From an uncultured Pseudomonadota bacterium (lineage in GTDB: Bacteria; Chloroflexota; UBA5177; JAJPKF01), in contig CAWIIC010000004.1 of assembly GCA_963836045.1 (NCBI GenBank), positions 313,726-377,725 on the forward strand: a DNA stretch of 64,000 nt, in the 5' to 3' direction. The notes under the pieces were generated by a model. That model had not been told where the DNA came from. It saw nothing but the letters and a program-made list of their open reading frames with translations, and did no database searches. Shown in pieces: positions 1 to 53,085 of the stretch (positions within the stretch are counted from its first letter, which is position 1; each line of letters starts with the position of its first letter). The position numbers and the translations under genes are program-made.

Positions 1-1120
1 GGCCAGCTGTCCCGCTTGCCGTACTCTGCCGTAGCAGCCTCCCACGCGTGACGGTCCTCCGGGTTGTCGAGCATCAACAAAAGGCAATTACATAGTGACT
101 CGGCGCTCCGGAACTCGCTGAGTAAGCCCCGGCCTTCGGCCAGCGCCTCAGTCGCATGCGGATAAGGTGTCGAGATTATGGCGCGCCCCGTGCCCACGGC
201 AAATGCAAGTGTGCCGCTGGTGATCTGATTGCGGTCAAGATAGGGCGTCATATACACATCGGTGGCTTGAAGGTAGTCGACCACCTCGCGATCCGAAAGA
301 TATTGGTTGACAAACCTGACGTTCCGCGCAACCCCAAGCTCCCGCGCCAGCGCCGTCAGCTCGTTTCGATACTGCTCTCCCGCCCGTTTGCGCAGCTCCG
401 GATGCGTCTCGCCGACTACAAGGTACAGCGCCTCCGGATGGTGCTCGACGACCTCAGGTAGTGCTTGGATGGCGTATTCGATACCCTTGCGCGGGTCGAG
501 TAACCCCATGGTGGTAATCAGCGTCCTGCCCTCGAGCCCCAACCGTTTCTTGAAGTATCGTCGCGGACGGTGCTCCACCACGGGCACACCATGCGGTATG
601 CGCACGAGCTTGTCGGGCGAAACCCCGTAATCGTCCATCAAAATCATGGCCCCGGTACGAACCATGACCACGGTTGCCGCCGACCCCTCGACGATTCCAT
701 GCATGATTTGACGTTCGTAGTCTGTTGGAACTGGACGGATGGTGTGGAGGGTTGAAACCACTGGAATCCCCTCCTTCTGTGCTGCTTCCAAAAAGGCTCC
801 GGTATGGTCGACCTCAGGTCCGGCATCCCCCCACTCGCCCCAGATGCCGTATTCATGCTGCACGCAGAGTACGTCTGCCCGCGCTTTCTTTGCTACTTTG
901 ACGGCATTCGAGTAAGCTTCCGGCTCGTCCTGCTCGATACGTGCCATGACCCGTGCTCCGTACGAGTAGCTTTCATCTGGAGGTTCGATAGCCACGACTT
1001 GCACGCTGATATTCCTGTCTGGAACCAGCGCTCGGCTGAGGTCGGCCGCGAACGTTGCCAGCCCGCATTGTCTCGGAGGGTAGCTGCTCACCATGACAAC
1101 ACGAAGGTGACCTAGGGCCA
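1..1120 (-). CDS. glycosyltransferase family 4 (GT1/GT4 fold), partial: C-terminus runs off the window start
   Basis: The reverse-strand translation from the ATG at 1120 reads MALGHLRVVMVSSYPPRQCGLATFAADL...GETHPELRKRAG...VYMTPYLDRNQITSGTLAFAVGTGRAIISTPYPHATE, a typical retaining GT-B glycosyltransferase. It is absent from the ORF track because its stop lies outside the window. Confidence 0.7.
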
Positions 1121-1184
1121 TTCGCCGTGCCCCAGGGTGCTGCTTGACATATTTCAATATAAGGCACAGGACGTGCCGCGAACC

Positions 1185-1345
1185 GCAGACCGACAGTCGT
1201 CTACCGTAACCGTCTACCGAAAGGGTCTATCGAAACCGTCTACGGAAAGGGTCTATCGTAAACTGTTAACTGCTTACCGTAAACTGTCTACCGTCTACCG
1301 TAAACCGTCTACCGTCTACTGTTTACCGTTTACGTATACGGCCTT
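1185..1345 (+). repeat. tandem heptanucleotide repeat array (TACCGTC/AACCGTC/AACTGTT heptads, about 20 units)
   Basis: Direct reading shows cgtctac|cgtaacc|gtctacc|... with strict 7-nt periodicity. The 170-aa + ORF at 1137..1649 is a translation artefact of this repeat. Confidence 0.8.
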
Positions 1346-1349
1346 CGGC

Positions 1350-1586
1350 CTACTGCCGCCGCGTCCCCTCAGACTCCTCGCGAGCCAGCAGCTCCTGGTA
1401 CTCTCGGGCGCGCGCCCTGAGATACGCCAAACTGTGCCGTTGACAGTAATAACCGCCATCCCACAGCTCATGGTCGTCGCCGTTGTATATGTCGCCCTTG
1501 CACACGACACACCGCGCCACGATCTTTGCTCCGTCTCTCCTGAGCATCTTCCCCCTGCCGCCCCGTTTTGGAATTCTACTCGCCAC
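1350..1586 (-). CDS. small zinc-ribbon protein (hypothetical)
   Basis: 78-aa ORF with a C-x2-C ... C-x2-H arrangement (CVVCKGD...YYCQRH). It sits between two heptad-repeat arrays. Confidence 0.35.
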   Translation of the reverse strand: MASRIPKRGGRGKMLRRDGAKIVARCVVCKGDIYNGDDHELWDGGYYCQRHSLAYLRARAREYQELLAREESEGTRRQ

Positions 1587-1597
1587 GCGTACTCGGT

Positions 1598-1690
1598 TGC
1601 CACCGACCCGACGACAACTGTAAACCGACTACCGTCAACCCTGAACTGACTAGCCGTTTTTACCGTCTACGGCCCACCGTCCCTTTAGAG
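1598..1690 (+). repeat. heptanucleotide repeat block (aactgta|aaccgac|taccgtc|aaccctg|aactgac...)
   Basis: 7-nt periodic units that bridge the TACCGTC and AACTGAC heptad variants. Confidence 0.6.
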
Positions 1691-1703
1691 CCAACACCCT
1701 GCA

Positions 1704-3173
1704 TCAGGCCGCTACCTTCGTACGAAGCAAGTTGTGGGCCTTGCTCAAGTAACCCGCAAAGCGGACCGGGCGGCCGAGCGCGACCTCGATGTCTGCCGGC
1801 GTCATGTTGTCAAGTAACTTTGTCCCCGTCTTGTCCAACATCACCTCGGGAAGCAGGATCAGGCTTCCACGAAGCCGGCCCTGGTTCTCGACGACGTCCC
1901 GTCCCGTCAGCAGGCCCGAGACCTTGACCCGCGGTCCAAAGAACGTATTACGAATCGGAACCACCTCGGCATCGACCCCCACCAAAGCCGCCCACTCCGC
2001 GACCAGCGGCTCGACGATCGGCGCCGCCAGCTCCCCACATACCACCGAAACCGACCGGTGTTCCATGCGCTCAACGGACTTCTCCAGCCGTCGCCTGGTT
2101 CGGGCCCAGTCGTCAATGAAATCTCGCACCATGCCGATGCCATTCTCGTACTGCGGATACCCATCGTAAGCTCGGGCCGCCGGAACCCGTGCGCCCGCCA
2201 GCAGGTAGAACTCGTCTGAAGCGTAGACCAATGTCTTGCCGTGCCGGCGACGGTTTGCCTGTTGCAGCGGTTGGACTTGCTCCAGGAGAGCCCTGGCCTC
2301 ACGCGGCTCGAATTGTCGCAGCCCGAGATTCGCGGCGCTCGGTAGTATTCTGCTGCACGATGGCTCCGGATCGGACAGAATTTCCTCGGGTGTTCGCGTC
2401 AGCCCGACGGGCACCACCCCGATCGACAGCACGTCCGGATAACGCTCGTTGAGGTCGTGCAGCGTGGCGTCAAGGGCGGCGCCATCGTTGATCCCGGGGC
2501 ACACGACCACTTGGCTGTGTATCTTGATGCCGATGTCGCGGAGCCGATCTAGCTGTCGCCGTATATCGGGAATGCGTTCGTTGCCCAAGAGCAAACGCCG
2601 GAGCTTCGGATCTGTCGCATGTATGGACACGTAGAGCGGGCTTAGCTTCTGCTCCTCCAGCCGCTGCCAGTCCTTCTCGTTGAGGTTCGTCAGCGTGACG
2701 AAGTTTCCGAACAGAAACGAGTAACGATAATCGTCGTCCCGAATATAGAGACTGCTTCGCATCTCGTGCGGCAGCTGGTCGATGAAACAGAATGGACAGT
2801 GATTGTTGCACTCTCTGATCGGTGCGAAAGTCGGCTGAGTAAAGGTAATTCCCAGAGATTCGCCCTCGTCCTTGACCACGTAGAGTGTCTCCGGCGTGTC
2901 CGGCGAGGAATGTCGCGCCGCCTCTAGAATGACAACTGCGTCGGCGGCATGGAATTGGTAGTCGATGACGTCCCGCAGTCGATGTCGATTGACGGTGAAA
3001 ATAACGTCCCCGGGAGCGATGCCCGCTGCGGCTGCAGGACTGCCCGGCGCCACCGACTCCACCACGCCACCGCGCCTCCCTCGAGACGTGGTCTGGCGGG
3101 CATGGGTTCCTGCGAGCTCGATGCCCTCGACGAGGTCACCGGGCGCACCTATCGGGCGAAGGCGGCTGGTCAT
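1704..3173 (-). CDS. radical SAM protein with N-terminal PDZ domain (DUF512/TIGR03279-like)
   Basis: 489 aa. The N-terminus looks like a PDZ domain (VVESVAPGSPAAAAGIAPGDVIFTVN). A CNNHCPFC (C-x3-C-x2-C) radical-SAM cluster motif follows. Confidence 0.8.
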   Translation of the reverse strand: MTSRLRPIGAPGDLVEGIELAGTHARQTTSRGRRGGVVESVAPGSPAAAAGIAPGDVIFTVNRHRLRDVIDYQFHAADAVVILEAARHSSPDTPETLYVVKDEGESLGITFTQPTFAPIRECNNHCPFCFIDQLPHEMRSSLYIRDDDYRYSFLFGNFVTLTNLNEKDWQRLEEQKLSPLYVSIHATDPKLRRLLLGNERIPDIRRQLDRLRDIGIKIHSQVVVCPGINDGAALDATLHDLNERYPDVLSIGVVPVGLTRTPEEILSDPEPSCSRILPSAANLGLRQFEPREARALLEQVQPLQQANRRRHGKTLVYASDEFYLLAGARVPAARAYDGYPQYENGIGMVRDFIDDWARTRRRLEKSVERMEHRSVSVVCGELAAPIVEPLVAEWAALVGVDAEVVPIRNTFFGPRVKVSGLLTGRDVVENQGRLRGSLILLPEVMLDKTGTKLLDNMTPADIEVALGRPVRFAGYLSKAHNLLRTKVAA

Positions 3174-3385
3174 GTTCGTGTGCCTCTTTCAGGCACGTCG
3201 CCGGCCTGAGGAAACTGATGTGGCCGTACAAGCGGGCGTCCGGACCTGAAAAGTTCCGGTGCCGTCCTAAAGCCGTCCTGTCATTATCGCAGGCCACGGA
3301 CGCAAGAACGGGAAGCGTCTCCGCTTCCCGCTCCAAAGTTCGCCAGCTAAGTTCGCCGGCTAGCCTCGTCAGCTACGTATGGCGA

Positions 3386-3802
3386 CTACTTCTTGACGTG
3401 ATACACGGCGTCGACCGTAGCGTGGTGTCCCATGATCTCAAAAACGAGCTTGCTTCCCATATGCATGGGCTTGTTGCCCATGGCGCCCATGACGTTCCAG
3501 TGCCCAAACGGCCAGGTCATCTTGTCGGTCGGCGTCTCGCTTAGATGCAGCTTGACCATGTGCGGGACCATGTATGTACACGATGCCGTCTTGCAGACGC
3601 CCGCCTTGTGCATCATTCCGTGGGCCATGTACTTGACGCTGACCATGCCCCATACGGTGCCGCTGGTGGTCGTGATGTTCACCGTCACCTTGTCCATCCC
3701 CATCGCCTTGTGTGCCGGAGCGGCCAAGCTGCTGCCGGCAGTAGCCAGGCCGATCGCGCCAATCGCCAGGAGCGCGAGAGCTGAGTTTCGGAGTTTCCGC
3801 AT
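3386..3802 (-). CDS. secreted Met/His-rich protein, possible Cu(I)-binding periplasmic protein
   Basis: Start taken at the internal MRKLRNSALALLAIGAIGLATAGSSLAAPA signal peptide. The mature part is dense in M and H (MGMDK, MAHGMMHKAG, MVPHMVK, MGNKPMHMG, MGHHATVDAVYHV). Confidence 0.5.
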   Translation of the reverse strand: MRKLRNSALALLAIGAIGLATAGSSLAAPAHKAMGMDKVTVNITTTSGTVWGMVSVKYMAHGMMHKAGVCKTASCTYMVPHMVKLHLSETPTDKMTWPFGHWNVMGAMGNKPMHMGSKLVFEIMGHHATVDAVYHVKK

Positions 3803-4231
3803 GAAGAATCCATTCCTTTCAGTGCACGTGTAAGTAACGGGTTCATCACCCATCCAGGATCAGTCTGACGGGTGAAGCTTACGAAACTATTACGAAGCTT
3901 GCCGGCTCGATCACCGCTTTCACACCGGATCCCTTGTATTCCGCCTATCGTAAGTTCAGGAAGTCCCAAGCACTGCCACGAGAATGGCATCGGAATCCTC
4001 CACGGCACGGCCGCCGCGACTGCTGTGGCCGTCTTCTAGCCAGTTCTCACCCACATATAAGGAAACCGATGCTGTCATGCGTCCGTCCGGCACGACAAAT
4101 GCAGACAAGAGGAAAGCTGCTCGGTCCGCGACGCTGAACCGGGCTCGAAGATTAACGCTAACTGTCGGCGGCGGCATGGAGGAGTCCGTGGCTCGGGCCA
4201 CCGCCTTTCGACAAGGGGAAAGGCAAAAGCA

Positions 4232-4495
4232 ATGAATGTTATTCGATCGGTGCCCCACATGGCTCTCCTCAGTGCGGCCGCCGTCTTTGGGTTAGGTGGC
4301 TTCCTGACCATCCTGGCCGGCCCACTCGATGGGTTTCATACCGTCATGGTTCTTGGTGTAGACATGGGACTGCTTTCTATGTTCCTGACGGCTTCGTGGC
4401 ACATGTCTAGTGATGATAGGAGCAAACCTCCCGGCCGATTGAAGCGCCTGGCCGCAGACCACCACTCTCAGGCCAGAAAACTCCTCGGCGTCTGA
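4232..4495 (+). CDS. small hypothetical membrane protein
   Basis: 87-aa ORF with two hydrophobic helices (ALLSAAAVFGLGGFLTILAG; VMVLGVDMGLLSMFL). No homology recognised. Confidence 0.25.
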   Translation: MNVIRSVPHMALLSAAAVFGLGGFLTILAGPLDGFHTVMVLGVDMGLLSMFLTASWHMSSDDRSKPPGRLKRLAADHHSQARKLLGV

Positions 4496-4892
4496 GCTGC
4501 CGTCCCGGAGACTCAAGAGACTCCGGACTCCGCTTGGAGGACACGGAATGCAGATGGCAATCATTTAACTCCGTACAAAAAGGTCGGCGCATATGGCAAA
4601 TTCACATGGAGCGACTCGTTCCAGAAACGCGCCGGGATCGCGGATCCAATCCTCTCACGCCGAGTTCGGAGGGTATGAGACCAATGTGCCTCGCGTAGAA
4701 ACCATGATTTCGGAAGGCAATGAGCTGCTCTCCAAAGCCGACGCCCTGGCGGACGGATGATGACGTAGGGGTGCTGGTCGGAGCGGGTTGCTGCATTGAG
4801 CCGGCCCTAACTCAGTTGCGATTGTGCTTTCGGGCGGACTGTCGTAGAGTATCGAGTAGGACCTTTCATCGGAGACTGCTCGCGATCAAGCG

Positions 4893-4960
4893 CTTCCGCT
4901 CTTCCGGTTTTACCGTCTAGCGTCCACCTCTATTCTTCTACCGTCTACCGTCTACCCCCT
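4893..4960 (+). repeat. TACCGTC heptad repeat block
   Basis: ttttaccgtctagcgtcc...ttctaccgtctaccgtctaccccc lies directly upstream of the RBS of the 4981 gene. Confidence 0.6.
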
Positions 4961-4980
4961 ATCAAGGAGGACAACCTGCT

Positions 4981-5715
4981 ATGTCGAGGACAAGAGCTTC
5001 CCTAGATGGCGCAATGGAAAGCAATGCGTCGCCCACGGGACGGATACCCCGATCGGGACTGCTTAAAGGCGCGATTGGTGCGCTGGCCGGAGTCCTTGGC
5101 GCCGGTCTGTTCGCCGGCGCCGGGTCACAAAATGCTGATGCCGCTGGCACTGCCGCCAGCAACTTCACCGCCTATGGCACCGACACAACCTTCACCGGCA
5201 ATCCACAGATCGGCTTTGACGCCTCAGACCAGAACGCAGGGTTCATAGAGGGCGTATATGGCACCGGTACCATTGCGGGAGTAATCGGCGTCGTCGGAAA
5301 TCCCGGTAAAGGCACACAGGCGGCAGGCGTACTCGGCCTCGCTCACAGCGGCCATCTGCCCGGAGGAATTCCGTACAAGGCTGGGACGGGCGTTTTCGCG
5401 GTCGCTGCGAAAGGAGCGATTGGAGTTGACGCGTATGGTTCTGGAGGCATCGCCGTGCACGGCACGACAAGAAGCGATTCTAGCCCCGGCATCCTTGGAC
5501 AGAACAACTCACGGGGCCCGGGCATTCGTGGAGCTAGCCAGCTCGGGCGGGGAGGCGTCTTTGAGGGCGGCCTGGCCGCCGTCCGCCTAGCGCCGTCGAC
5601 GGCTCCTACTCACCCCCGTGGTGGTCAGGTTGGCGATTTGATGGTTGACTCGGCCCACCGTCTGTGGTTCTGTAAGCGTGGGGGTAACCCCGCCCGCTGG
5701 AAGCAGTTGGCGTAA
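4981..5715 (+). CDS. secreted glycine-rich repeat protein (hypothetical)
   Basis: An AGGAGG RBS sits 8 nt upstream. The N-terminus has an RIPRSGLLKGAIGALAGVLGAGL signal or Tat-like region. The body carries long GxxG-type repeats and a conserved-looking C-terminal WFCKRGGNPARWKQLA. Confidence 0.55.
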   Translation: MSRTRASLDGAMESNASPTGRIPRSGLLKGAIGALAGVLGAGLFAGAGSQNADAAGTAASNFTAYGTDTTFTGNPQIGFDASDQNAGFIEGVYGTGTIAGVIGVVGNPGKGTQAAGVLGLAHSGHLPGGIPYKAGTGVFAVAAKGAIGVDAYGSGGIAVHGTTRSDSSPGILGQNNSRGPGIRGASQLGRGGVFEGGLAAVRLAPSTAPTHPRGGQVGDLMVDSAHRLWFCKRGGNPARWKQLA

Positions 5716-7439: not shown

Positions 7440-7715
7440 CCGCAAACGGCTTCATCCGCTGTCCCGAGCCCCTTTGTTCGAAAATGGCGTCGGACTCCTC
7501 CACGTTACTTTCGGCCGCGATCGCCGTGGCTCGTTCTTCCATCGCCCTTGTCCTCGCGGTCGCCTGGACTGAAAACTGAAACTTGAAGTGGCGTCGGAAG
7601 CCTAAATGGCGACGACCGCGCGAATACTGCGCTCCTGTTCGTCCAATGCCCGGGCGATGGCGGTCGCCTGGACTGACAACTGAAAACTGAAAACTGAAAA
7701 CTGAAAACTGAAAAC
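7440..7715 (+). repeat. two tandem copies of the dispersed heptad-tailed intergenic element (family 1)
   Basis: Each copy has a gttcgaaaatggcg module, a ccatcgccc..cgcggtcgcctgga core and a ctgaaaa/ctgacaa heptad tail. The 7306..7764 and 7505..7798 minus ORFs (FQFSVFSFQFSV) are repeat artefacts. Confidence 0.8.
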
Positions 7716-7848
7716 TTCCGACTGACCGGCCTCCCCTTTCCCCTGGAATACGAGTCTCCGGCATCGCAGTGAACCGTGCCTCTAATCGGTGTTGTCAATC
7801 GAGTACCTGCTTGGGTACCATGAGACGCAGAACAGGAGGGTTACGCTC

Positions 7849-9645: not shown

Positions 9646-10389
9646 TCATAACTGATATCCACCGCCGACGTTGATGACCTCACCCGTGACATAAGCGGCT
9701 TCGTCGGATGCCAGGAACGCCACGACGTTTCCCACATCTTTCGGATCGCCTGCCCGTCCGAGCGGTATCTTCGCAAGTTGCGCCTCCCGAATCTGATCCG
9801 GTATCCCACGCGTCATCTCCGTGTCGATGAACCCTGGGCAGATCGCATTGGCTCGCACTTGATACCGAGCCAGCTCCTTGGACGCCGTCTTGGTGAGCCC
9901 GACCACCCCTGCCTTCGCCGCGGCGTAGTTCGCTTGCCCGATGTTCCCCATCCAGCTCGCCGACGAGATGTTGACAATGCTCCCCGACCGTGCCTCCCGC
10001 ATCACCCTGCTGCCTGCCCTCGTCATGTAGAAGACGCCATTGAGGTCAACCGCAATCACGGCGTCCCACTGGTCGTTGTCCATCTTGTGCAGCATGGCGT
10101 CCCGATTGATCCCGGCATTGTTGACCATGACATCTAGCCGCCCAAATCGCTCCACGACTCGAGCGACCAGAGCATCGTCTTGCTCGGAGTCCGAAACATC
10201 GACCCGCTCCGCCCGCGACTCACCCCCACAAGTCCCGGCCACGCGCTCCGCATCCTCGATATTCTGGTCGGCGCAAACCACCGTAGCCCCCTCCGCCGCG
10301 AGAGTTAAGGCGATCCCCGCTCCGATCCCCCGCCCCGCCCCGGTAACAATAGCGACCCTATCCTGAAGCCTCAAGACAACTCCTCCCAA
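9646..10389 (-). CDS. SDR family oxidoreductase (FabG-like 3-oxoacyl reductase)
   Basis: TGAGRGIG Rossmann motif. NAG and YxxxK catalytic motifs (NNAG; YAAAKAG). Confidence 0.85.
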   Translation of the reverse strand: MGGVVLRLQDRVAIVTGAGRGIGAGIALTLAAEGATVVCADQNIEDAERVAGTCGGESRAERVDVSDSEQDDALVARVVERFGRLDVMVNNAGINRDAMLHKMDNDQWDAVIAVDLNGVFYMTRAGSRVMREARSGSIVNISSASWMGNIGQANYAAAKAGVVGLTKTASKELARYQVRANAICPGFIDTEMTRGIPDQIREAQLAKIPLGRAGDPKDVGNVVAFLASDEAAYVTGEVINVGGGYQL

Positions 10390-36399: not shown

Positions 36400-36590
36400 C
36401 CCGACGCTTGACCCTGCCGCCCGAGTCCGAAGATGGCGTTGGAACCCCTCCACGGCGACCATCGCCGCGACCACTCTAGCCGGTCCTCCCTGGCCGGGGC
36501 GCGGATCCCGGTTGTGGCGCGGTCATCCACGGCTCGCTGGTAGCGGTCGCCTGAAACTGAAAACTGAAAACTGAAAACTGACCCAGCGTC
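36400..36590 (+). repeat. heptad-tailed intergenic element (family 1)
   Basis: ccacggcgaccatcgccgcgaccact...gcggtcgcctgaaactgaaaactgaaaactgaaaactga. Confidence 0.75.
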
Positions 36591-36635
36591 ACGCTGGCTC
36601 CCCAGGCTCAAGGGCTAACTTTACATGCTGGCTCG

Positions 36636-40839: not shown

Positions 40840-41480
40840 CAGGTGGTTGACTGAGCCCAACCCGCGTCTGTGCGCCGGCCCCCGACGACCGCAGCCGGGC
40901 TTCCCCTTTCCGAAGACTGACCCCAGTCCGCGCCCGTCCGCCAACTCTCGACAACATCCGCTTGGTCCTCCGTGGCTCTGGGCGGTCGACACGTCTGTGC
41001 GCCGCTCCCCCGACAACCCCCAGCCTCCCGTGCCCAGCCGGTCGCGCCCGTGCGCCAACCGCCGACAACGTCTGCCCCACACTCCGCGAACCGGTCGCAG
41101 CGTCTGTGCGCCGGCCTCGCTAACGTCGCCACGGTTTTCCGTCCCCAGGCGGTTGCCGCGTCTCTGCGCTGACCGCCGACAACGTCCGCCCGATATTCCG
41201 TACTCAGGCGGTCACGGCGTCTGCGCCCCCTCCCCCGACAAACCCGCCCAGCCTTCTGCGCCCGGGCGGTTGCCGCGTTCTGCACTGACTGCCGACAACG
41301 TCCGCCCGATATTCCGTGCTCAGGCGGTCACGGCGTCTGCGCGGCCCTCCCCGACAACCCCAGGCCAACCTACCGTGCGCTGGGCGGTTGCCGCGTCTCT
41401 GCGCTGACCGCCGACAACGCCCGCCCGACATTCCGTGCTGAGACGGTCACGGTGTCTGTGCGCCGCCCCTCCCCGACAAC
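40840..41480 (+). repeat. degenerate tandem array, about 5.5 copies of a roughly 120-nt unit made of two roughly 60-nt sub-repeats
   Basis: Sub-repeat A is ggcggtcacggcgtctgcgc..ccccgacaaccc.gcccagcctaccgtgc.cgggc. Sub-repeat B is ggttgccgcgtctctgcgctgaccgccgacaacgtccgcccgatattccgtgctcag. There are no unique spacers. The array merges into a family-1 element. Confidence 0.8.
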
Positions 41481-41562
41481 CCCGCCCAGCCTACCGTGCC
41501 CGGGCGATCGCGGTCGCTGGAACTGAAAACTGACAACTGAAAACTGACAACTCCCTACCGTG
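41480..41562 (+). repeat. heptad-tailed intergenic element (family 1), abutting the stop of the LCP gene
   Basis: ccgggcgatcgcggtcgctggaactgaaaactgacaactgaaaactgacaact. Confidence 0.75.
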
Positions 41563-43772: not shown

Positions 43773-44480
43773 ATGCAATTCGAGAACACCTTTTCCGTTG
43801 ACGCTCCGATCGACAGGGTCTGGAGCTACCTCCTTGACGTGCAAGCGGTCGCCCCTTGTGTCCCCGGAGCAGAACTGACCGAGATAGTGAGTGACACGGA
43901 GTTCAAGGGCACGGTCAAGGTCAAACTCGGCGCCGTCCAGGTTTCCTACAAAGGAACACTAGCCTTGAAGGAGGTGGACGAAGCTGCGAGGAAGGTCGTG
44001 TTGGTCGCCAGCGGCAACGAAACCCGCGGGTCCGGCAGCGCCTCCGGAACGGTCACCTCGCATCTGGTTGCCGAAAGCGCCGCGCGCACCTCCGTCCGCA
44101 TAGTCTCGGAAGTCAACATCACGGGCCGTGTCGCTCAATTCGGCCGCAACATCATGCAGGACGTCTCCAACCGTCTCATCCGTGAGTTCGCCAAGTGCGT
44201 GGAGAGCAATCTGGTTGCTCGTGAGGCCCAGCTTCCCCCATCCCTCGGGGCGACTGCTGACGGCAACGATGAGTCCCCGGCCACACCTAACGCCCCCGAG
44301 CAGCCTGTCGGCTCAAGTGCGACGCCGCAGGCGGAGGCTGAACTCCGCCCTCCCTCCGCGAACCCCGAATTCGGCGCTCCCTCCGCGAACCCTGATTCTG
44401 CCGCTCGCTCCGCGAACCTGATTCAGGCGCTCGCTCCACGAACCCTCAGTTCGGCGAGCCCTCCACCAACCCTGATTTAG
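43773..44480 (+). CDS. SRPBCC-family CoxG-like protein with C-terminal low-complexity repeat tail
   Basis: MQFENTFSVDAPIDRVWSYLLDVQAVAPCVPGAELTEI is a CoxG family signature. The tail runs into the 27-nt tandem repeat. Confidence 0.7.
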   Translation: MQFENTFSVDAPIDRVWSYLLDVQAVAPCVPGAELTEIVSDTEFKGTVKVKLGAVQVSYKGTLALKEVDEAARKVVLVASGNETRGSGSASGTVTSHLVAESAARTSVRIVSEVNITGRVAQFGRNIMQDVSNRLIREFAKCVESNLVAREAQLPPSLGATADGNDESPATPNAPEQPVGSSATPQAEAELRPPSANPEFGAPSANPDSAARSANLIQALAPRTLSSASPPPTLI

Positions 44481-44600
44481 ACGCTCGCTCCACCGACCCT
44501 GAACTCGGCGGGCCATCCACCAACCCTGGATTCGGCTCTCGCTCTGAATTCGGCGGGTCCTCCACCAACCCTGAATTCGGCGCTAGCTCCGCGAACCGAC
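44340..44600 (+). repeat. tandem 27-nt repeat (about 9 copies, consensus cctgaattcggcgctcgctccgcgaac) at and after the 3' end of the CoxG-like gene
   Basis: It encodes PEFGAPSANP-like nonapeptides in the gene frame. Repeat copies differ by indels, so the frame breaks. Confidence 0.75.
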
Positions 44601-44789: not shown

Positions 44790-45100
44790 GAAAGCGCCGT
44801 CGGAATCCACCACGGCGACTGTCGCCACCACTATCGTGGCCCCAGCCCTCCGTTTCCGTGGGGCGGGTCGCGGTCGTGCCTTGTTCTTCCATCGCCCGGG
44901 CGATCGCGGTCGCCTGGAACTGAAACCTAAAACTACTTTTCATGCTTCGTGACGCGTCAAGGGCATGGGAGGCTGTTCGAAAATGCGTCGCAATCCAGCC
45001 ACGGCGACCACCGTCGCGACCACTGTGGCCCGTTCGTCCATCGCCCGTGCGCTTGCGGTCGCTGGAACTGAAAACTGAAAACTGAAAACTGACAACTTAA
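44790..45100 (+). repeat. two tandem copies of the heptad-tailed intergenic element (family 1)
   Basis: Both copies contain catgcttcgtg / gttcgaaaatg / ccaccacggcgac..tcgcc.c.accact / ccatcgcccgggcgatcgcggtcgc(c)tggaactgaaa... modules. The 44662..44943 minus ORF is an artefact. Confidence 0.8.
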
Positions 45101-47550
45101 ATCTTCTTCGTCACTCGCTTATCCAGATAGTCCAACAGAACGTGCTCCCCGAGGTGATACGGACCCGTGAGAAATGCGCGTCCCCGGTTGACCGCCGTCA
45201 TCCGCTCTACAAACGATACGAGTGCCTGGTCGGCGTCGAGCATGAACGTGTTGATGACGATGCCCTCCCGGTAACAGCGTGCAGCCTCCGTGAGCGCGGC
45301 CCGCCGTACAAACCCCGGAGCGGGGTAATTGACGTAAATCCCCCCATTCGGTACGCAACACGCGGTCGGCTCCCCATCGGTGACGAAGAGAATCTGGCGG
45401 TTTCCTCCCCGATGGCGAGCGAGCAGCCGGCGTGACAGCGCCAGAGCCATCTCGTAGTTGGTGCCCTGCACCATGTAGTTCTCCGCCAGTGCCGGCAGAT
45501 CGTCTCTCGTCAGTTCGTAAGCCACGTCGGCGAACCCGATAATCTGCAAGACGTCGTGCGGGAACTGTCCCCGGATCAGGCTGTCGAGCGCGAGAGCGGT
45601 CTTCTTGGCCTCTAAGAACAATCCCCTCAAAAACATCGATCGTGACGTGTCAATCGCCAGCACCGTGGCGTGCCGCACCGCCCGCTCTGTCTCGAAAACG
45701 TCGAAATCTGAAGGCATGAGTCGGAGCGGAGACCGTGCTCCTCGACGCACGCCGTTCATCAGAGTGCTCCTAAGGTCAACGTGAAACGGGTCGCCAAAGT
45801 TGTACGGCTTGCTGTGGGCGGCTAGATCGCCGCCCTGCCCTCTTCGGTGCGTCTGGTGTCCACCCTGACGGTCGTCCTTGAGCTTCTGAAAAATCTCCTT
45901 GAGTGCGCTGTCGCCGAGTTTGCGAATAGCCCGTGGAGTCAATTCCAACCGCTCGCCGTTGCGCTTGAGGTACCCCGCCTCGAGGAGGGACTCGGCCATG
46001 TCCTTCACCGCCTCGATCTGAGCCCCCATTCGCCGTCCGAATAACGAGCTCGGGCTGAGCCCGCTGGTGTTGTTGGCAGCGTCGCTAAGTGCCGACAACG
46101 GGTCTCGCGCCAGCGCTTCCTCCAGCTGCTCCATGGCTTGGAGCCTGCGCATCATGTCCAAAGACTCGCCGAACCCGGGCGCGTCCGACCCTTCGAAGGG
46201 AAAGCCCCCTCCCTGAATCGGGTATCCCATGGCTTCGAGGTTCGCGCCCAGCTGCGCCAGGTCGAGCTGCAACCGGTCGTCCCGCAGCAGCTCGCTCATC
46301 ATGTCAAGCAGCTCTTGTCGAGATTGCGGGTCCATGCTGTCCAGCAGGGCCTGTACCTGTGACGCCTGTTGCTGCAAGTAGCTCAAGAGGTCGTCCAGCG
46401 TCTCGATGTCGGGCGGAAAGTTCTGACCCCATTTGTTCATGAACTCTTGAAAAGCGTGCCGATCACCCTGGCGGCTTGCCTCGATCATCTGATTGAGGTC
46501 CTGGACCATCTGCCGCGTCGCGTCCAGCATCTCGGGCGTTATCTGCCCGACGCCGTCCTTCAAAGATTGGGAATACTGCTGCAGCAATCGACGCTGCAGA
46601 TCGCCGACCAGGCTCTCGAAAGCCTCTCGAGCCTCTGCCGACATAAAGTCATACTCGCGCAGGCTGCGTATCCGTCCCGCGTTGTCCGGCGGCAGTTGAT
46701 CTAGCTGCGATCGCTTACGTTCCAGCATGCGCTCGAGCATGGCTTCGAGCTCGCGTACATCGCCTCCTGAACCGTCTGCACCTCCGTCGCCGGCGTGCTC
46801 ACCGCCCTGCTGCGGCGCCGATCCGCCCGGCTGAGAACCCTGCGGACCTCCGTCGCCGGCACGCTCACTGCCCTGCTGCGGCGCCGATCCGCCCGGCTGA
46901 GAACCCTGTGAACGTCCGTCGCCGGCACGCCCACCGCCCTGCTGCGGCGCCGATCGGCCCGGCTGAGAACCCTGTGAACGTCCGTCGCCGGCACGCTCAC
47001 TGCCCCTCTGCCGCCCCCCGTCGGACTGAGAACCGTCTGCGAAGCCGCCTGCCCTCTGTTGCCCCGCCTGCCCCTGCTCCCGGCCCGGCTCAGAACCCCC
47101 GGGAAGACCAGCCGTCTGTTGCCCTGCTTGCCCCTGCTCCCTGCCCGACTCGCCTTCCCCTGGCTTGGATGGGCTCTCGCCCGTCGAGCTCCCGTCTGAT
47201 CCTTCCGTGCTGCTCCGATTCGTGCCTCGACTCTCGATGCTCTCCCGCTCCATCTGGATGATCTCGTCCAGCTTCTCTCGGATGGCATCGATGGTTCGCG
47301 ACGGATCGTAACGGTCCAGCATGGCTTCGCGCTCGCGCTGCATCTGCTGCAGCAGCCGCCTGAGGCCGTCAAAACGGCGACCGTCAGGCAGCGTAAAGCC
47401 CCGCTGCAGCAGGTTCCGCAAAGCCTTGCGCGGATCTCCCGCGCGAAGCAGGTCGTCGGCTAGCTGGTCGAGTATGTCGTCGGCAGAGAAGTCCGGCACT
47501 TCTTGCGTGCCGTCCCAAGCCGAGTACTGATAGGGCTGTCGTGCCTCCAT
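45097..47550 (-). CDS. VWA domain-containing protein (CoxE-like C-terminal vWA) with long acidic N-terminal region and internal tandem repeats
   Basis: The C-terminus (VLAIDTSRSMF...ILFVTDGEPTA) matches the VWA_CoxE pattern. The central region holds about 4.5 copies of a 60-nt repeat encoding QGSQPGGSAPQQG(G/S)ERAGDGR. Confidence 0.75.
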   Translation of the reverse strand: MEARQPYQYSAWDGTQEVPDFSADDILDQLADDLLRAGDPRKALRNLLQRGFTLPDGRRFDGLRRLLQQMQREREAMLDRYDPSRTIDAIREKLDEIIQMERESIESRGTNRSSTEGSDGSSTGESPSKPGEGESGREQGQAGQQTAGLPGGSEPGREQGQAGQQRAGGFADGSQSDGGRQRGSERAGDGRSQGSQPGRSAPQQGGGRAGDGRSQGSQPGGSAPQQGSERAGDGGPQGSQPGGSAPQQGGEHAGDGGADGSGGDVRELEAMLERMLERKRSQLDQLPPDNAGRIRSLREYDFMSAEAREAFESLVGDLQRRLLQQYSQSLKDGVGQITPEMLDATRQMVQDLNQMIEASRQGDRHAFQEFMNKWGQNFPPDIETLDDLLSYLQQQASQVQALLDSMDPQSRQELLDMMSELLRDDRLQLDLAQLGANLEAMGYPIQGGGFPFEGSDAPGFGESLDMMRRLQAMEQLEEALARDPLSALSDAANNTSGLSPSSLFGRRMGAQIEAVKDMAESLLEAGYLKRNGERLELTPRAIRKLGDSALKEIFQKLKDDRQGGHQTHRRGQGGDLAAHSKPYNFGDPFHVDLRSTLMNGVRRGARSPLRLMPSDFDVFETERAVRHATVLAIDTSRSMFLRGLFLEAKKTALALDSLIRGQFPHDVLQIIGFADVAYELTRDDLPALAENYMVQGTNYEMALALSRRLLARHRGGNRQILFVTDGEPTACCVPNGGIYVNYPAPGFVRRAALTEAARCYREGIVINTFMLDADQALVSFVERMTAVNRGRAFLTGPYHLGEHVLLDYLDKRVTKKI
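46780..47110. repeat. in-frame 60-nt tandem repeat (about 4.5 copies) inside the VWA gene
   Basis: ccgcccggctgagaaccctgcggacctccgtcgccggcacgctcactgccctgctgcggcgccgat repeated with minor variation. Confidence 0.75.
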
Positions 47551-47589: not shown

Positions 47590-47922
47590 GTAGGCGGACT
47601 TCTGCCAAGAAGATGGCCTCGGAATCCACCACGTCCCCCGTGGCCACGACTACTGCAGTCCGGCCCTCGGTGGTCGGGAGGAGAATCGCGGTCGTGGCCC
47701 GTCTTTAATGGCCCGAGCGGTCGCGGTCGCCTGCAGCTGACGCATGACAACTAAGAGCTATTTTTCCATGCTGCGCGGTAGCCCCGCGCATGGGTGGCTA
47801 GTGGGAAAATAGCACCGGATTCCGCACCGCGATCCCCGCAGCGACACTGGCCCGGTCTTCCACCGCTCGCGCGCTAGCGGTCGCTGGAACTGAAAACTGA
47901 CAACTGAAAACTGACAACTCCG
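47590..47922 (+). repeat. two tandem copies of the heptad-tailed element (the first has a degenerate tail)
   Basis: ccaccacgtcccccgtggccacgactact...gcggtcgcggtcgcctgcagctgacgcatgacaact and tttttccatgctgcgcgg...gcggtcgctggaactgaaaactgacaactgaaaactgacaact. Confidence 0.75.
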
Positions 47923-47924
47923 GC

Positions 47925-48287
47925 CTACTGATCGCCCGCCAGCCCCACAAAGTGCAGAAGTGTCCTCAGCGTGAAGGGCTTGGGCAGCCACCCTTCAAAG
48001 CACGCCTGCGCTCGTCCGCGCACGGCCATTGGGTCGGCGGTGGACATGGCGATGATGGGCACCTCGCTGCAGGCCCCTAACTTGAGCTCCTCCGCCATAC
48101 CGATTCCTGCCTCGACCGGCAGCACCAGATCCATGAGTACGAGATCGGGTTTCTGTTCTTCGGCCAGCCTCAGAGCTTCAACAGTGCTGCGAGCCGCCCG
48201 AACCCCATATCCCTCCTCACCCAGAACCAGCGTGAGCATGCGGAGCATTTCAACATCGTCGTCTACGACGAGGATGTCGTATGCCAT
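47925..48287 (-). CDS. stand-alone response regulator receiver (CheY-like)
   Basis: MAYDILVVDDDVEMLRML...KPDLVLMDLVLP carries the conserved Asp pocket. 120 aa. The 314-aa track ORF has a spurious N-terminal extension. Confidence 0.7.
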   Translation of the reverse strand: MAYDILVVDDDVEMLRMLTLVLGEEGYGVRAARSTVEALRLAEEQKPDLVLMDLVLPVEAGIGMAEELKLGACSEVPIIAMSTADPMAVRGRAQACFEGWLPKPFTLRTLLHFVGLAGDQ

Positions 48288-48425: not shown

Positions 48426-49364
48426 AAAGTAATCGTGACGGGTGCTACCGGTTTTGTCGGTTCCGCCCTCGTGAGGAGGCTGCTGTCGCGGGGCGATCGC
48501 GTCGTCGCCGTCTCCCGCAATCCCGACAAGGCAGCAGTAGTGCTTGGGAACGATGTAACGGCCGTCCCCTGGTCCCCCCCGGCTTCGAACGCCGCCCTGG
48601 TAGACGAGGTCAACGGCGCGGACGCTATCGTCAACCTCGCCGGTGAGCCTCTGGCCGATAAACGCTGGACCCCGGAGGAGAAGGATCGCATCCTGCGCAG
48701 CCGCGTTGATGCCGGCCGTTCCATTCTTGAGGCCGTGCGTATGGCGACTTCGCGGCCCGGCGTCCTGATCAACGCCTCCGCGATCGGGTATTACGGCGAC
48801 CGGGGCGACGAGCGCTTGGTCGAGTCGAGTCCTCCGGGACATGACTTCCTCGCTGATGTGGTTCGGCAATGGGAGGCTTCAGTCGGGCCCGTAATCGAGT
48901 TGGGAGTGCGCCTCGTCCTGCTTCGCACCGGATTTCCGGTTCTCGGCTCGTCCGGCGGCGCACTGCCCCGGTTTGCGTTGCCGTTCAGATTCTTTGGCGG
49001 CGGCGTGCTCGGCCCTCGCGACCAGTGGGTTTCCTGGATCCACATCGAAGACGAGGTCGACCTCATACTCTTCGCCCTGGACTCGGACGTCGTATCCGGC
49101 CCCGTCAACGCCACCGCGCCGAACCCCGTTACTATGGCAGAGTTCTCCAACGGCATCGGGCACGCGCTCAAACGCCCTGTCTGGGTACCGGCGGTCCCAA
49201 CGTTCCTGCGGTTAGTGTTGGGCGAGAGGGCCGAGCCTCTGTTCACGAGTCAGCGTGTCTTCCCCGATCGCGCGCTAGGCCTAGGATTCCAATTCAAATA
49301 CGTGAACGCCAACCAAGCCCTGGACTCTCTCCTAGGAAACCCCCATCCCCAGCCCTCCCGGTAA
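48426..49364 (+). CDS. TIGR01777/DUF1731 family NAD-dependent epimerase/dehydratase (YfcH-like)
   Basis: MKVIVTGATGFVGSALVRRLL Rossmann motif and a C-terminal DUF1731-like region. Confidence 0.75.
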   Translation, partial: KVIVTGATGFVGSALVRRLLSRGDRVVAVSRNPDKAAVVLGNDVTAVPWSPPASNAALVDEVNGADAIVNLAGEPLADKRWTPEEKDRILRSRVDAGRSILEAVRMATSRPGVLINASAIGYYGDRGDERLVESSPPGHDFLADVVRQWEASVGPVIELGVRLVLLRTGFPVLGSSGGALPRFALPFRFFGGGVLGPRDQWVSWIHIEDEVDLILFALDSDVVSGPVNATAPNPVTMAEFSNGIGHALKRPVWVPAVPTFLRLVLGERAEPLFTSQRVFPDRALGLGFQFKYVNANQALDSLLGNPHPQPSR

Positions 49365-49369
49365 TCGCC

Positions 49370-49560
49370 TGCCTACCACCGGACAGCTTACCGTCTACAG
49401 TCCCTCCCGGTAATCTCAGTCTTAACATCCGACAGCTTACCGTCTACAGTCCGTCGTCAACCGGTCTACCGTCGACCGACTTCCCCGGTGGTCTATTTTC
49501 ACTCAATCGTCAATCAACCACTGAAAAACTGACAACTGATAACTGACAACTGAAAACTTA
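49370..49560 (+). repeat. composite heptad block: TACCGTC-type units followed by AACTGAC/AACTGAA units
   Basis: cagcttaccgtctacagtcc...cagcttaccgtctacagtccgtcgtcaaccggtctaccgtcgacc...ccactgaaaaactgacaactgataactgacaactgaaaactta. Confidence 0.7.
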
Positions 49561-52699: not shown

Positions 52700-53085
52700 A
52701 CGCCTTAACCGGCAGGGGGATCCCCATGCTTCGTGGTGCCTGAAAGTCATACTGATCCCGTTCGACCATGGCCGTCGTAATCCTCCCCGCCGACCATTGC
52801 CGCGACTACACCAACCCTGACTTCCATACCCCGGGCGGGTGCGGTCGCTGGAACTGACAACTGAAAACTGACAACTGAAAACTGACAACCATTTTCTCCA
52901 TGCTTCGTGGTGTCCAACGCCCTGGGAGGCCAGTTCGAAAATGGAAACGGATCGAGGAGAGCCTCCCCGCCGACCATCGCCGCGACTACAGCAACCCTGG
53001 CTTCCATGCCCCGGGCGGTTGCGGTCGCTGGAACTGAAAACTGAAAACTGACGACTGAAAACTGAATCATGTACCATGATGTGCT
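52700..53085 (+). repeat. two tandem copies of the heptad-tailed intergenic element (family 1)
   Basis: catgcttcgtggtg...ccgccgaccat(t/c)gccgcgactaca..aaccctg(a/g)cttccat(a/g)ccccgggcgg(g/t)tgcggtcgctggaactga(c/a)aactgaaaactga... repeated twice. The 52595..53077 and 52747..53211 minus ORFs are artefacts. Confidence 0.8.

Follow-up and report, generated by a model that had tools for sequence, protein, structure and literature searches.

Bacteria have been known to contain tandem repeats of seven nucleotides (heptads) since 1990, the over-representation of these repeats was demonstrated in 2007, and as a class they are still unexplained. Here we describe four blocks of TACCGTC-type heptads, which join that class, in a 64,000-nt stretch of an uncultured Chloroflexota genome (assembly GCA_963836045.1, contig CAWIIC010000004.1, positions 313,726 to 377,725 of the forward strand; the whole of this stretch is referred to as the window), where these blocks (family 2) occur together with elements built on the unit CTGAAAA or AACTGAM (family 1). 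We consider it rather probable that the four blocks are heptanucleotide arrays generated by slippage and duplication, which are tolerated only in untranslated DNA, turn over fast and have no programmed role. The window arrays can be likened to the STRR heptamers of Calothrix and Anabaena, alongside the repeats of Xanthomonas and Nostoc. A different kind of heptad array is bound by the omega protein of inc18 plasmids, a ribbon-helix-helix repressor that acts cooperatively on contiguous 7-bp iterons (5'-WATCACW-3') in direct or inverted orientation. The window arrays differ from such operator arrays in that no gene for a cognate regulator was found, a distant relative (L120) has no such sites in its orthologous spacers, and the arrays are dispersed genome-wide and not confined to a few operators.

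The closest described class are the heptanucleotide long simple sequence repeats (LSSRs), which according to Mrazek, Guo and Shah (2007, as cited in PMC4679880 and PMC4692102) are over-represented in the intergenic DNA of scattered, non-pathogen lineages as tandem 7-nt units, with several unit families per genome, rapid change between relatives and polymerase slippage as the proposed origin; their length and sequence vary extensively between close relatives (PMC4679880, PMC4692102). The four blocks fit this class, being tandem arrays of 7 nt in non-coding DNA, present at several loci and in more than one unit family, changing fast and absent from a distant relative. To the 2007 survey, as far as it is relayed in those two papers, the window adds an uncultured Chloroflexota lineage, the unit TACCGTC/GTCTACC, mostly degenerate arrays, and the use of one strand over ~72 kb.

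In Beggiatoaceae, Cyanobacteria and Bacteroidetes, direct TAACTGA repeats have been described that lie shortly before start codons (MacGregor 2015, PMC4679880). They resemble the window arrays in being intergenic, in often lying a few bases before a start codon in forward orientation (as block 3 does), in being mixed with other heptads, in showing 7-nt-step indels between strains and in forming same-orientation sets in Microcystis, and the family-1 unit of the window, (A/C)AACTGA, equals TAACTGA at 6/7 positions. The family-2 unit TACCGTC differs from it, however, three of the four family-2 blocks follow opposite-strand stops instead of preceding starts, and no conserved head such as that of family 1 is described for TAACTGA (PMC4679880). 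The GGGAATC repeats of Xanthomonas and the GGGGA(C/T)T repeats of Nostoc (Rehm et al. 2015, PMC4692102) likewise combine fixed and free positions, range from 2 to 26 units, form inverted pairs and occupy the same intergenic sites in related species with extensive variation in length and sequence, but they are G-rich and capable of forming G-quadruplexes, whereas TACCGTC is not, and the + strand RNA of family 2 is unstructured. Finally, the 7-bp repeats of Haemophilus influenzae hmw1A/hmw2A and the TTTTGAT repeats of V. cholerae ctxAB are also heptad arrays, located between promoter and start, and expression is tuned by their copy number. These repeats are perfect, differ by whole units between isolates and within infections and have defined positions in the promoters of virulence genes, while family 2 is imperfect, shows no whole-unit variation and lies mostly outside promoter positions.

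Structure of the TACCGTC-type blocks and their variation between strains

The TACCGTC-type blocks are real, strand-biased tandem repeats of 7 bases that exceed chance expectation and are also degenerate. An earlier note on this DNA had listed such 7-mers in four places, and Tandem Repeats Finder as well as regular expression searches recovered the blocks at about those coordinates (Table 1), with all of the heptad types that it had named. The unit takes the form of an imperfect (N)ACCG(N)(N) heptad, and all four blocks are intergenic and run on the + strand. In the window (~60% G+C), TACCGTC was counted 14 times against 5.5 expected, a number reached in 0 of 100 shuffles, and the two-unit periodic pattern ACCGTNNACCGTNNAC (≤ 1 mismatch) 11 times against 0.28 expected, the chance expectation of both counts being derived from dinucleotide-preserving shuffles; every one of these copies is on the + strand, and all copies of the two-unit pattern fall inside blocks 1–3. 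The broader expression [AT]AC[CT]G[TA][CAT] matched 128 times on the + strand and 36 times on the − strand, with clusters of ≥ 3 matches on the + strand only, and it delimited 13 units at 1202–1330 (the final 9 sharing one phase), 5 units at 1616–1667 (4 of them in phase) and 3 in-phase units at 4911–4952. Strand counts (+:−) of 14:0 for TACCGTC, 25:1 for AACTGAA and 19:2 for AACTGAC bear out the proposal of the same note that a second heptad family shares the 7-nt period and the strand of the CTGAAAA family.

The family-2 tracts are imperfect (70–86% matches in Tandem Repeats Finder) and combine several periods. The left half of block 1 consists of 13/26-nt super-units with 6-nt and 13-nt steps (1199–1263: period 26, 2.5 copies, 89% matches) and its right half of 7/21-nt units (1253–1319: period 21; 1275–1333: period 7, 8.4 copies, TACCGTC consensus, 76% matches). 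Block 2 contains a weak array at 1612–1640 (period 14, 2.1 copies), block 3 a period-7 array at 4911–4956 (6.6 copies, 73% matches, 9% indels) that is broken by 19 bases without repeat, and block 4 two copies of a 49-nt (7 × 7) unit at 49353–49452, each holding about two heptads, with three further units after them. Stop codons are found in all three − strand frames of all four blocks, and ATG or GTG is almost absent from both strands. The arrays are C-rich and G-poor on the + strand, and their + strand RNA is unstructured. A conserved RNA structure in block 1 was considered and rejected: the − strand folds with z = −3.1 through GUAAAC/GUUUAC pairing, but those units are missing in a 90% identical strain (L123). 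Rfam gave 0 matches at gathering score across the whole window.

Relatives were collected as members of the 90% protein clusters of the window proteins. They comprise a sister strain of 98–99% identity (L122 and L125, one 349-kb ENA contig), a second strain of 90–95% identity (L123, L124 and L127–L129) and a distant relative whose DUF512 protein is 76% identical at the amino acid level (L120 and L121). The recurrence of the arrays in independent assemblies shows that they are no artefact of assembly. Between the window and L122, 127 differences were counted over 13,170 nt (98.9% identity), and 5 of the 9 indels are located in heptad blocks. Block 1 gained 1 nt at 1232 and 1 nt at 1332 in L122, block 2 gained 10 nt at 1656, and block 3 lost 5 nt at 4928, which together with substitutions produces a further perfect GTCTACC unit there; in L125, block 4 is unchanged. 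The family-2 indels between strains of 98–99% identity therefore measure 1, 5 and 10 nt, none of them a multiple of 7. Slipped-strand length variation between strains, as anticipated by the earlier note, is seen in family 1 (4, 8 or 12 units at one site, −7 nt at another) and not in family 2.

At 90% identity (L123), 26 heptads in exact register stand in place of block 1, most of them different units (CGACAAC, CGTATAC three times, CGCCTAC and others), which hardly differ at positions 1, 2, 4, 6 and 7 (C, G, C, A, C) and are variable at positions 3 and 5. This array contains local runs of one and the same variant unit (CGTATAC × 3, pairs of CGCCTAC), which show that units were duplicated. In the same strain the small Cys-rich open reading frame (ORF) next to block 1 is almost unchanged and the coding DNA is barely altered, and block 2 carries a 20-nt deletion in L123/L124. 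The whole convergent spacer that holds block 4 measures 193 nt in the window and 42 nt in L129, where it is essentially (TACCGTC)4, flush between the two stops; in this strain of 93–95% identity the spacer (L129 2677–2713, corresponding to window 49365–49557), made up almost wholly of four TACCGTC units, has no room for a hairpin terminator. In the distant relative L120, both spacers orthologous to those of blocks 1 and 2 are free of heptads, and a period-7 array is absent throughout 19.6 kb. Judged from these comparisons, family 2 is lineage-specific and evolves far faster than its flanks, with the period kept and the sites not conserved.

Spread, polarity and origin of the arrays

A scan of a genome collection with the exact string TACCGTCTACCGTCTACC, which corresponds to (TACCGTC)2.6, found it in at least 119 DNA stretches against ~17 expected by chance (estimated from database size); the window's own genome is not among the matches listed. 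The assemblies behind these matches carry the labels of about a dozen phyla, among them Gemmatimonadota, Chloroflexota, Bacteroidota, Acidobacteriota, Planctomycetota, Verrucomicrobiota and Pseudomonadota, and the G+C content runs from 34 to 71%. Within the 825 kb of matches listed, 7 is by far the commonest tandem-repeat period (355 arrays, compared with 139 for period 9), and 130 different heptad units are present. In viral contigs, TACCGTC repeats were found in 12 stretches and two scrambled heptads of the same composition in 11 and 8. The wide spread, the equal frequency of scrambled heptads and the 130 units together argue for a general phenomenon of heptanucleotide simple sequence repeats (SSRs), and (TACCGTC)n was rejected as a conserved cross-phylum motif on the grounds of the scrambled heptads in viral contigs and of the many co-occurring units. 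A literature search with the string (TACCGTC)2 found no paper.

The polarity of the arrays relative to coding regions was analyzed at loci of many phyla (L001–L119) with a crude ORF caller, using unambiguous cases only. Among the matches listed, it is the 3' end of (GTCTACC)n, read in that sense, which abuts a coding region: 61 arrays stand against the stop of an opposite-strand gene at a median distance of 2 nt, with the stop inside the array in 27, and 27 arrays stand before a co-directional start at a median distance of 22 nt, while the 5' side is 56–72 nt away from the nearest gene. Of the inverted pairs within 300 nt, all 29 are laid out as (GGTAGAC)n...(GTCTACC)n and none the other way round, and most of them are located between convergent genes. 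The four blocks of the window fit this rule. On the 3' side of a block, the reverse strand reads GGTAGAC, with TAG in all three frames, and the sense strand is without ATG or GTG. A polar decay of the arrays, with old units at the 5' and new units at the 3' end, was not retained, as the trend is weak (2.43 vs 1.66 degenerate units, 59 vs 44 cores). A link of array orientation with GC skew or coding strand across phyla was also tried, and no relation was found.

If the blocks are indeed products of slippage and duplication, two heptad families would recently have spread through the intergenic DNA of this Chloroflexota lineage, and the four blocks would belong to one of them. Local replication slippage, unequal exchange and block duplication would create the arrays and turn them over, giving rise to 7-nt units and to super-units of 13, 21, 26 and 49 nt, which point mutation would then degrade. 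The arrays would persist only in untranslated DNA, typically with the 3' end (in the sense GTCTACC) flush to a coding region, and any effect on neighbouring genes through the length or composition of untranslated regions (UTRs) would be incidental, not the work of a programmed switch. Family 2 would be the older, decayed family and family 1 (AACTGAM with a conserved head) the currently active one. Turnover, presence or absence of arrays and the concentration of indels in them are observed, and slippage in family 2 itself is suggested by its structure and by the behaviour of family 1.

Several observations are left unexplained by simple slippage. The strand uniformity is complete, with at least 18 arrays of both families all on the + strand over ~72 kb (window and relatives). 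A core is kept in the rewritten array of L123, where C-G at positions 1–2 and A-C at positions 6–7 are present in 22–24 of the 26 units and positions 3 and 5 are free. The polarity holds across phyla, both in the 3' end that abuts the coding region and in the 29:0 inverted pairs among the matches listed. Lastly, no unit-step polymorphism separates the family-2 arrays of strains at 98–99% identity, the indels being of 1, 5 and 10 nt.

In practice, the blocks are not to be annotated as promoters, switches or RNA genes, but as fast-evolving repeat filler around a conserved three-gene cluster (DUF512, small Cys protein, glycosyltransferase). The lineage is useful for studying the origin and any function of such repeats, as it offers two co-existing families (one active, one decayed), strains at 99% and 90–95% identity plus a distant relative, and a clear polarity rule.

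Alternative readings of the arrays

The arrays could instead be UTR modules that are read as single-stranded nucleic acid by a protein with a footprint of ~7 nt binding side by side, for instance a cold-shock-domain protein, S1, Rho or similar. In this case (GUCUACC)n would stand in 5' leaders just before the ribosome-binding site (RBS) and (GGUAGAC)n at the start of 3' UTRs, with UAG in all three frames, and they would tune translation initiation, catch read-through ribosomes or set transcript ends. The position of the arrays is what speaks for such modules: they are located in transcribed positions beside coding regions with strict polarity, block 3 has the order array, AAGGAGG, ATG, a layout found at many loci of other phyla, and blocks 1 and 2, as well as block 4 in L129, come directly after the stops of − strand genes. 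Among the matches listed, the last residues of many ORFs are VDGRR*, as encoded by GTAGACGGTAGACGGTAG, and 4 of 5 such ORFs tested against Pfam are genuine genes (TsaD, amidohydrolase, DAHP synthase and a Wzy-type ligase), whose stop codon is supplied by the arrays. Moreover, the ACCG core survives turnover, the + strand arrays are unstructured and C-rich/G-poor, the binding of S1/Csp/CsrA has been proposed for the TAACTGA repeats just upstream of start codons (MacGregor 2015, PMC4679880), and a Nostoc preprint (10.1101/2022.06.06.494920) describes reporter effects upon deletion of heptamer repeats. The RNA, however, differs by context (GUCUACC vs GGUAGAC), and one RNA-binding factor cannot explain both. 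Arrays are also missing in a relative with the same genes and rewritten within the species, scrambled heptads are equally common and 130 different units co-occur, which argues against a conserved reader, and family 1 is flush to the same kind of stops yet carries no stop codons in that direction. We regard UTR modules with a dedicated reader as unlikely, while giving them some weight.

Decidedly improbable, in our view, is the general proposition that heptad arrays are orientation-specific modules between coding region and transcription signals and not neutral microsatellites. It draws on the finding that in a dozen or more phyla one and the same end of (GTCTACC)n is turned to the adjacent coding region, and on the single arrangement of the close inverted pairs (29:0). 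If it were true, (GGUAGAC)n would start 3' UTRs and even give housekeeping genes their stop codon along with a VDGRR tail, and (GUCUACC)n would form the last part of 5' leaders. The consequence would be that single-stranded nucleic acid with a 7-nt period has a conserved reader, or else that the arrays are generated by a directional mechanism, and the latter could also explain why period 7 is favoured in bacteria.

The uniform strand would also be accounted for by a chromosome-strand-specific signal, or by a by-product of replication direction in which arrays are made or tolerated on one template strand only. Both families are on the + strand throughout the window, L122, L125, L127 and L129, the GC skew is negative across the whole window, so no origin or terminus lies inside it, and same-orientation sets are known in Microcystis (MacGregor, PMC4679880). 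We nevertheless hold this to be very unlikely, since at 68 loci of other phyla listed the orientation was linked neither to local GC skew (31 negative, 37 positive, p = 0.96) nor to coding-strand bias, and since 27 loci among the matches listed have both orientations within 8 kb, often within 100 nt.

Another possibility is that the blocks stem from a small non-autonomous mobile element, of which they would be decayed tails or fragments; the element would be organized as a head and a heptad tail like family 1 and be carried to new intergenic sites by some enzyme. Family 1 is indeed dispersed, has a head of ~80 nt followed by a heptad tail and is polymorphic in presence or absence and in tandem duplication, and the two families share spacers at 49.4–49.6 kb and just beyond the window start in L122. 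For family 2 this is most unlikely: it has no conserved head, its flanks being only degenerate heptads, neither terminal inverted repeats nor consistent target-site duplications were found, and Pfam searches of the window proteins revealed no transposase near any block.

Contingency loci, in which the reversible gain or loss of heptads would alter promoter or leader spacing and thereby switch the glycosyltransferase, the small ORF and the secreted Gly-rich protein, deserve next to no credence: although block 3 abuts the RBS of a secreted-type protein, block 1 is upstream of the glycosyltransferase gene, family 1 is polymorphic in unit number and precedents exist in the 7-bp repeats that tune the Haemophilus hmw1A/hmw2A promoters (PMC8262952, PMC12721329) and in the V. 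cholerae ctxAB TTTTGAT repeats (10.1101/2021.05.14.444153), slippage is suppressed by the imperfection of the family-2 tracts (70–86% matches), no multiple-of-7 change separates close strains, relative to the genes beside them three of the four blocks are antisense or downstream, block 4 has a stop codon on either side, a conserved 48-nt leader separates block 1 from the glycosyltransferase gene, and no promoter-like site was found in 1000–5100. The earlier note had put block 3 directly on the promoter and RBS region, of which the second half stands (the block ends 8 nt before AAGGAGG); as to the first, the scan of 1000–5100 returned no sigma-70-like site. Block placement shows no consistent tie to promoters, as only one of four blocks is sense-upstream of a start codon, block 4 being between convergent stops, and modulation of expression by family-2 blocks is scarcely credible given imperfect tracts, no whole-unit change and three of four blocks outside any promoter or leader in sense. 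Nothing in the analysis shows that the TACCGTC blocks act as an expression switch.

Neighbouring genes and the AACTGAM elements

Table 1. Heptad blocks, family-1 elements and adjacent genes, with coordinates in the window
Feature	Coordinates	Strand	Description
Block 1 (family 2)	1198-1340	+	~21 degenerate heptads of GTCTACC/GTAAACC/GTTTACC types; Tandem Repeats Finder, heptad phases, strain alignment
Block 2 (family 2)	1612-1681	+	weak degenerate array: CGACAAC TGTAAAC CGACTAC CGTCAAC CCTGAAC TGACTAG ... TACCGTC
Block 3 (family 2)	4906-4960	+	TACCGTC TAGCGTC, 19 non-repeat bases, CTACCGTCTACCGTCTACC
Block 4 (family 2)	49353-49478	+	49-nt unit × 2, each with GCTTACCGTCTACAGTC, then CAACCGGTCTACCGTCGACCGAC
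Group-1 glycosyltransferase gene	3-1121	−	Pfam; runs off the window start; start at 1121 taken from the L122 gene call (410 aa)
48-nt leader/promoter segment of the glycosyltransferase gene	1134-1181	−	hairpin (1177-1163), then TTATATTG; terminator-like site
Small conserved Cys-rich ORF	1350-1547	−	65 aa, CxxC...CxxH, C-terminal AREYQELLAREESEGT; gene called in L120-L124
PDZ + radical-SAM-like DUF512 gene	1704-3173	−	Pfam; stop 23 nt from the end of block 2
Gly-rich protein with N-terminal signal-like region	4981-5715	+	downstream of block 3; no Pfam match; same 244-aa gene in L122
Two family-1 elements	7540-7716	+	heads 7556 and 7660; arrays 7567-7587 and 7671-7712; upstream of a + strand BNR-repeat gene at 7789
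Family-1 element	36520-36582	+	− strand GC hairpin (36597-36583) runs directly into the array
Family-1 element	41485-41552	+	head CCCGGGCGATCGCGGTCGCTGG and array; flush to the stop of a LytR-family gene (41555)
Two tandem family-1 elements	44880-45101	+	second array flush to the stop of a vWA-domain gene (45097)
Family-1 element	47850-47919	+	end ~10 nt short of the stop of a response-regulator gene at 47925
Family-1 array (AACTGAM)5	49520-49558	+	flush to the dehydrogenase stop; in one spacer with block 4
Two tandem family-1 elements (~180-nt duplication)	52800-53066	+	60-85 nt upstream of an epimerase gene

Blocks 1 and 2 occupy the two spacers of a − strand row of genes (DUF512, small Cys-rich ORF, glycosyltransferase). 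Block 1 is found between the stop of the small ORF (1350) and the glycosyltransferase leader, its 3' end (+ sense) ~10 nt from that stop, and block 2 between the DUF512 stop (1704) and the start of the small ORF (1547). The small ORF is accordingly bracketed by heptads, as the earlier note had pointed out, and it is a real gene: 56 of its 65 amino acids are identical to those of an ORF beside DUF512 in the distant relative (L120, 9743–9940). It has no Pfam match. Located directly downstream of DUF512 and better conserved than DUF512 itself, it may form a functional pair with it; the best named homologues of the DUF512 protein are in Chloroflexota metagenome-assembled genomes. In strains with a rewritten block 1, the adjoining 48-nt leader of the glycosyltransferase gene is preserved at 100% identity. 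Pfam detected no DNA-binding domain among these neighbours of the blocks (glycosyltransferase, small Cys ORF, DUF512). In the spacer between DUF512 and the small ORF, L120 has a perfect 13-nt repeat (AAGGAATCACCTG × 2.3, at 9653–9682) where the window has heptads; this spacer gathers different repeats in different lineages. Two IS110-family transposase genes are located upstream in L120.

Block 3 is in sense orientation, followed by AAGGAGG (4965–4971) 8 nt further on and by the ATG (4981) at 20–24 nt, and it is the only block located upstream of a start codon in sense; blocks 1, 2 and 4 follow the stops of − strand genes. The spacer of block 4 is bounded by the convergent stops of an epimerase (49364) and a dehydrogenase (49558) gene. 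Between DUF512 and block 3, positions 3386–3853 of the − strand encode a secreted-type protein of 155 aa, unusually rich in Met and His (e.g., HGMMHK, KPMHMG) and without Pfam match, which may bind metal.

Family 1 consists of (AACTGAM)n arrays, which were found at 9 or more sites. Each of them follows, on the + strand, a conserved head that ends in TTCGTCCATCGCCCGGGCGRTNGCGGTCGC(C)TGG and reaches back ~80–100 nt to a CATTTTCGAAC box; the parts of the head are this box, a GC-rich hairpin-prone core and GCGGTCGC(C)TGG. Family 2 has no conserved head and is flanked by further degenerate heptads. Four family-1 arrays end 3–10 nt from the stops of − strand genes (41555, 45097, 47925 and 49558). 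The heads fold no better than shuffles, except for one copy at z = −1.95, and a metagenome scan with the lineage-specific head and array GCGGTCGCTGGAACTGAMAACTGA gave 0 matches. Three candidate properties of these elements were rejected, namely a coding capacity of the head for small peptides on either strand (from copy to copy, neither frames nor stops are kept), intrinsic terminators in the heads (terminator-like sites are fewer than in shuffles) and a 9-nt target-site duplication CCTACCGTG around the 41521 array (41491/41551), which was not seen at other family-1 copies. At 36583–36597 of the − strand, a GC hairpin CCAGCGTGACGCTGG precedes the family-1 array, which is read there as GUCAGUUUUCAGUUUU and could serve as the U-rich tail of an intrinsic terminator.

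Family 1 varies by units and by whole elements, with length differences of +28 nt, −7 nt and +6 nt between strains of 98–99% identity. The array at the LytR stop has 4 units in the window, 8 in L125 and 12 in L127; the array at 49527 is exactly one heptad shorter in L125 and missing in L129; and the array at 45066 has 4 vs 6 units, L127 holding a single element with 6 units at the 44.9–45.1 kb site. Whole elements are tandemly duplicated at 44.9–45.1 kb and 52.8–53.07 kb in some strains only, the latter being single copy in L125, and the elements at 7540–7716 differ in L122 by +6 nt and four substitutions.

As to the relation of the two families, the earlier note had regarded them as divergent expansions of one ancestral heptad, on the basis that their heptads differ at one or two positions and occur in single runs. 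Rare intermediate units do differ by 1–2 positions, but the consensus TACCGTC and AACTGAA differ at 4/7. A mixed run exists only in block 2, where one AACTGAC unit (1644) is in phase with four family-2-type units, in a part that is deleted in L123/L124; at 49370–49560 the families are neighbours ~50 nt apart and out of register (from 49467 to 49527 is 60 nt, i.e., 4 mod 7). Family-2 and family-1 arrays also share a spacer just beyond the window start (L122), and both families are on the + strand everywhere they were seen, including 8 kb beyond that start in L122. With the consensus difference, a head in family 1 only, and heptad-rich genomes that contain many unrelated units, the single ancestral heptad stays conjectural, and from the sequences at hand the common descent of families 1 and 2 cannot be shown.

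Further tandem repeats were observed around the family-1 elements. Directly left of the array at the LytR stop, positions 41139–41506 form a 116/59-nt tandem repeat (3–5 copies) made of copies of the family-1 head (CCGTGCCCGGGCGGTTGCCGCG...CGACAAC...), which in L127, at 92% identity, is replaced by unrelated sequence. In and beside the COXG-domain and vWA-domain genes, a 27-nt unit is repeated 10 times (44338–44597) and a 66-nt unit 3.6 times with 91% matches (46769–47005), and both probably encode repeated peptide segments.

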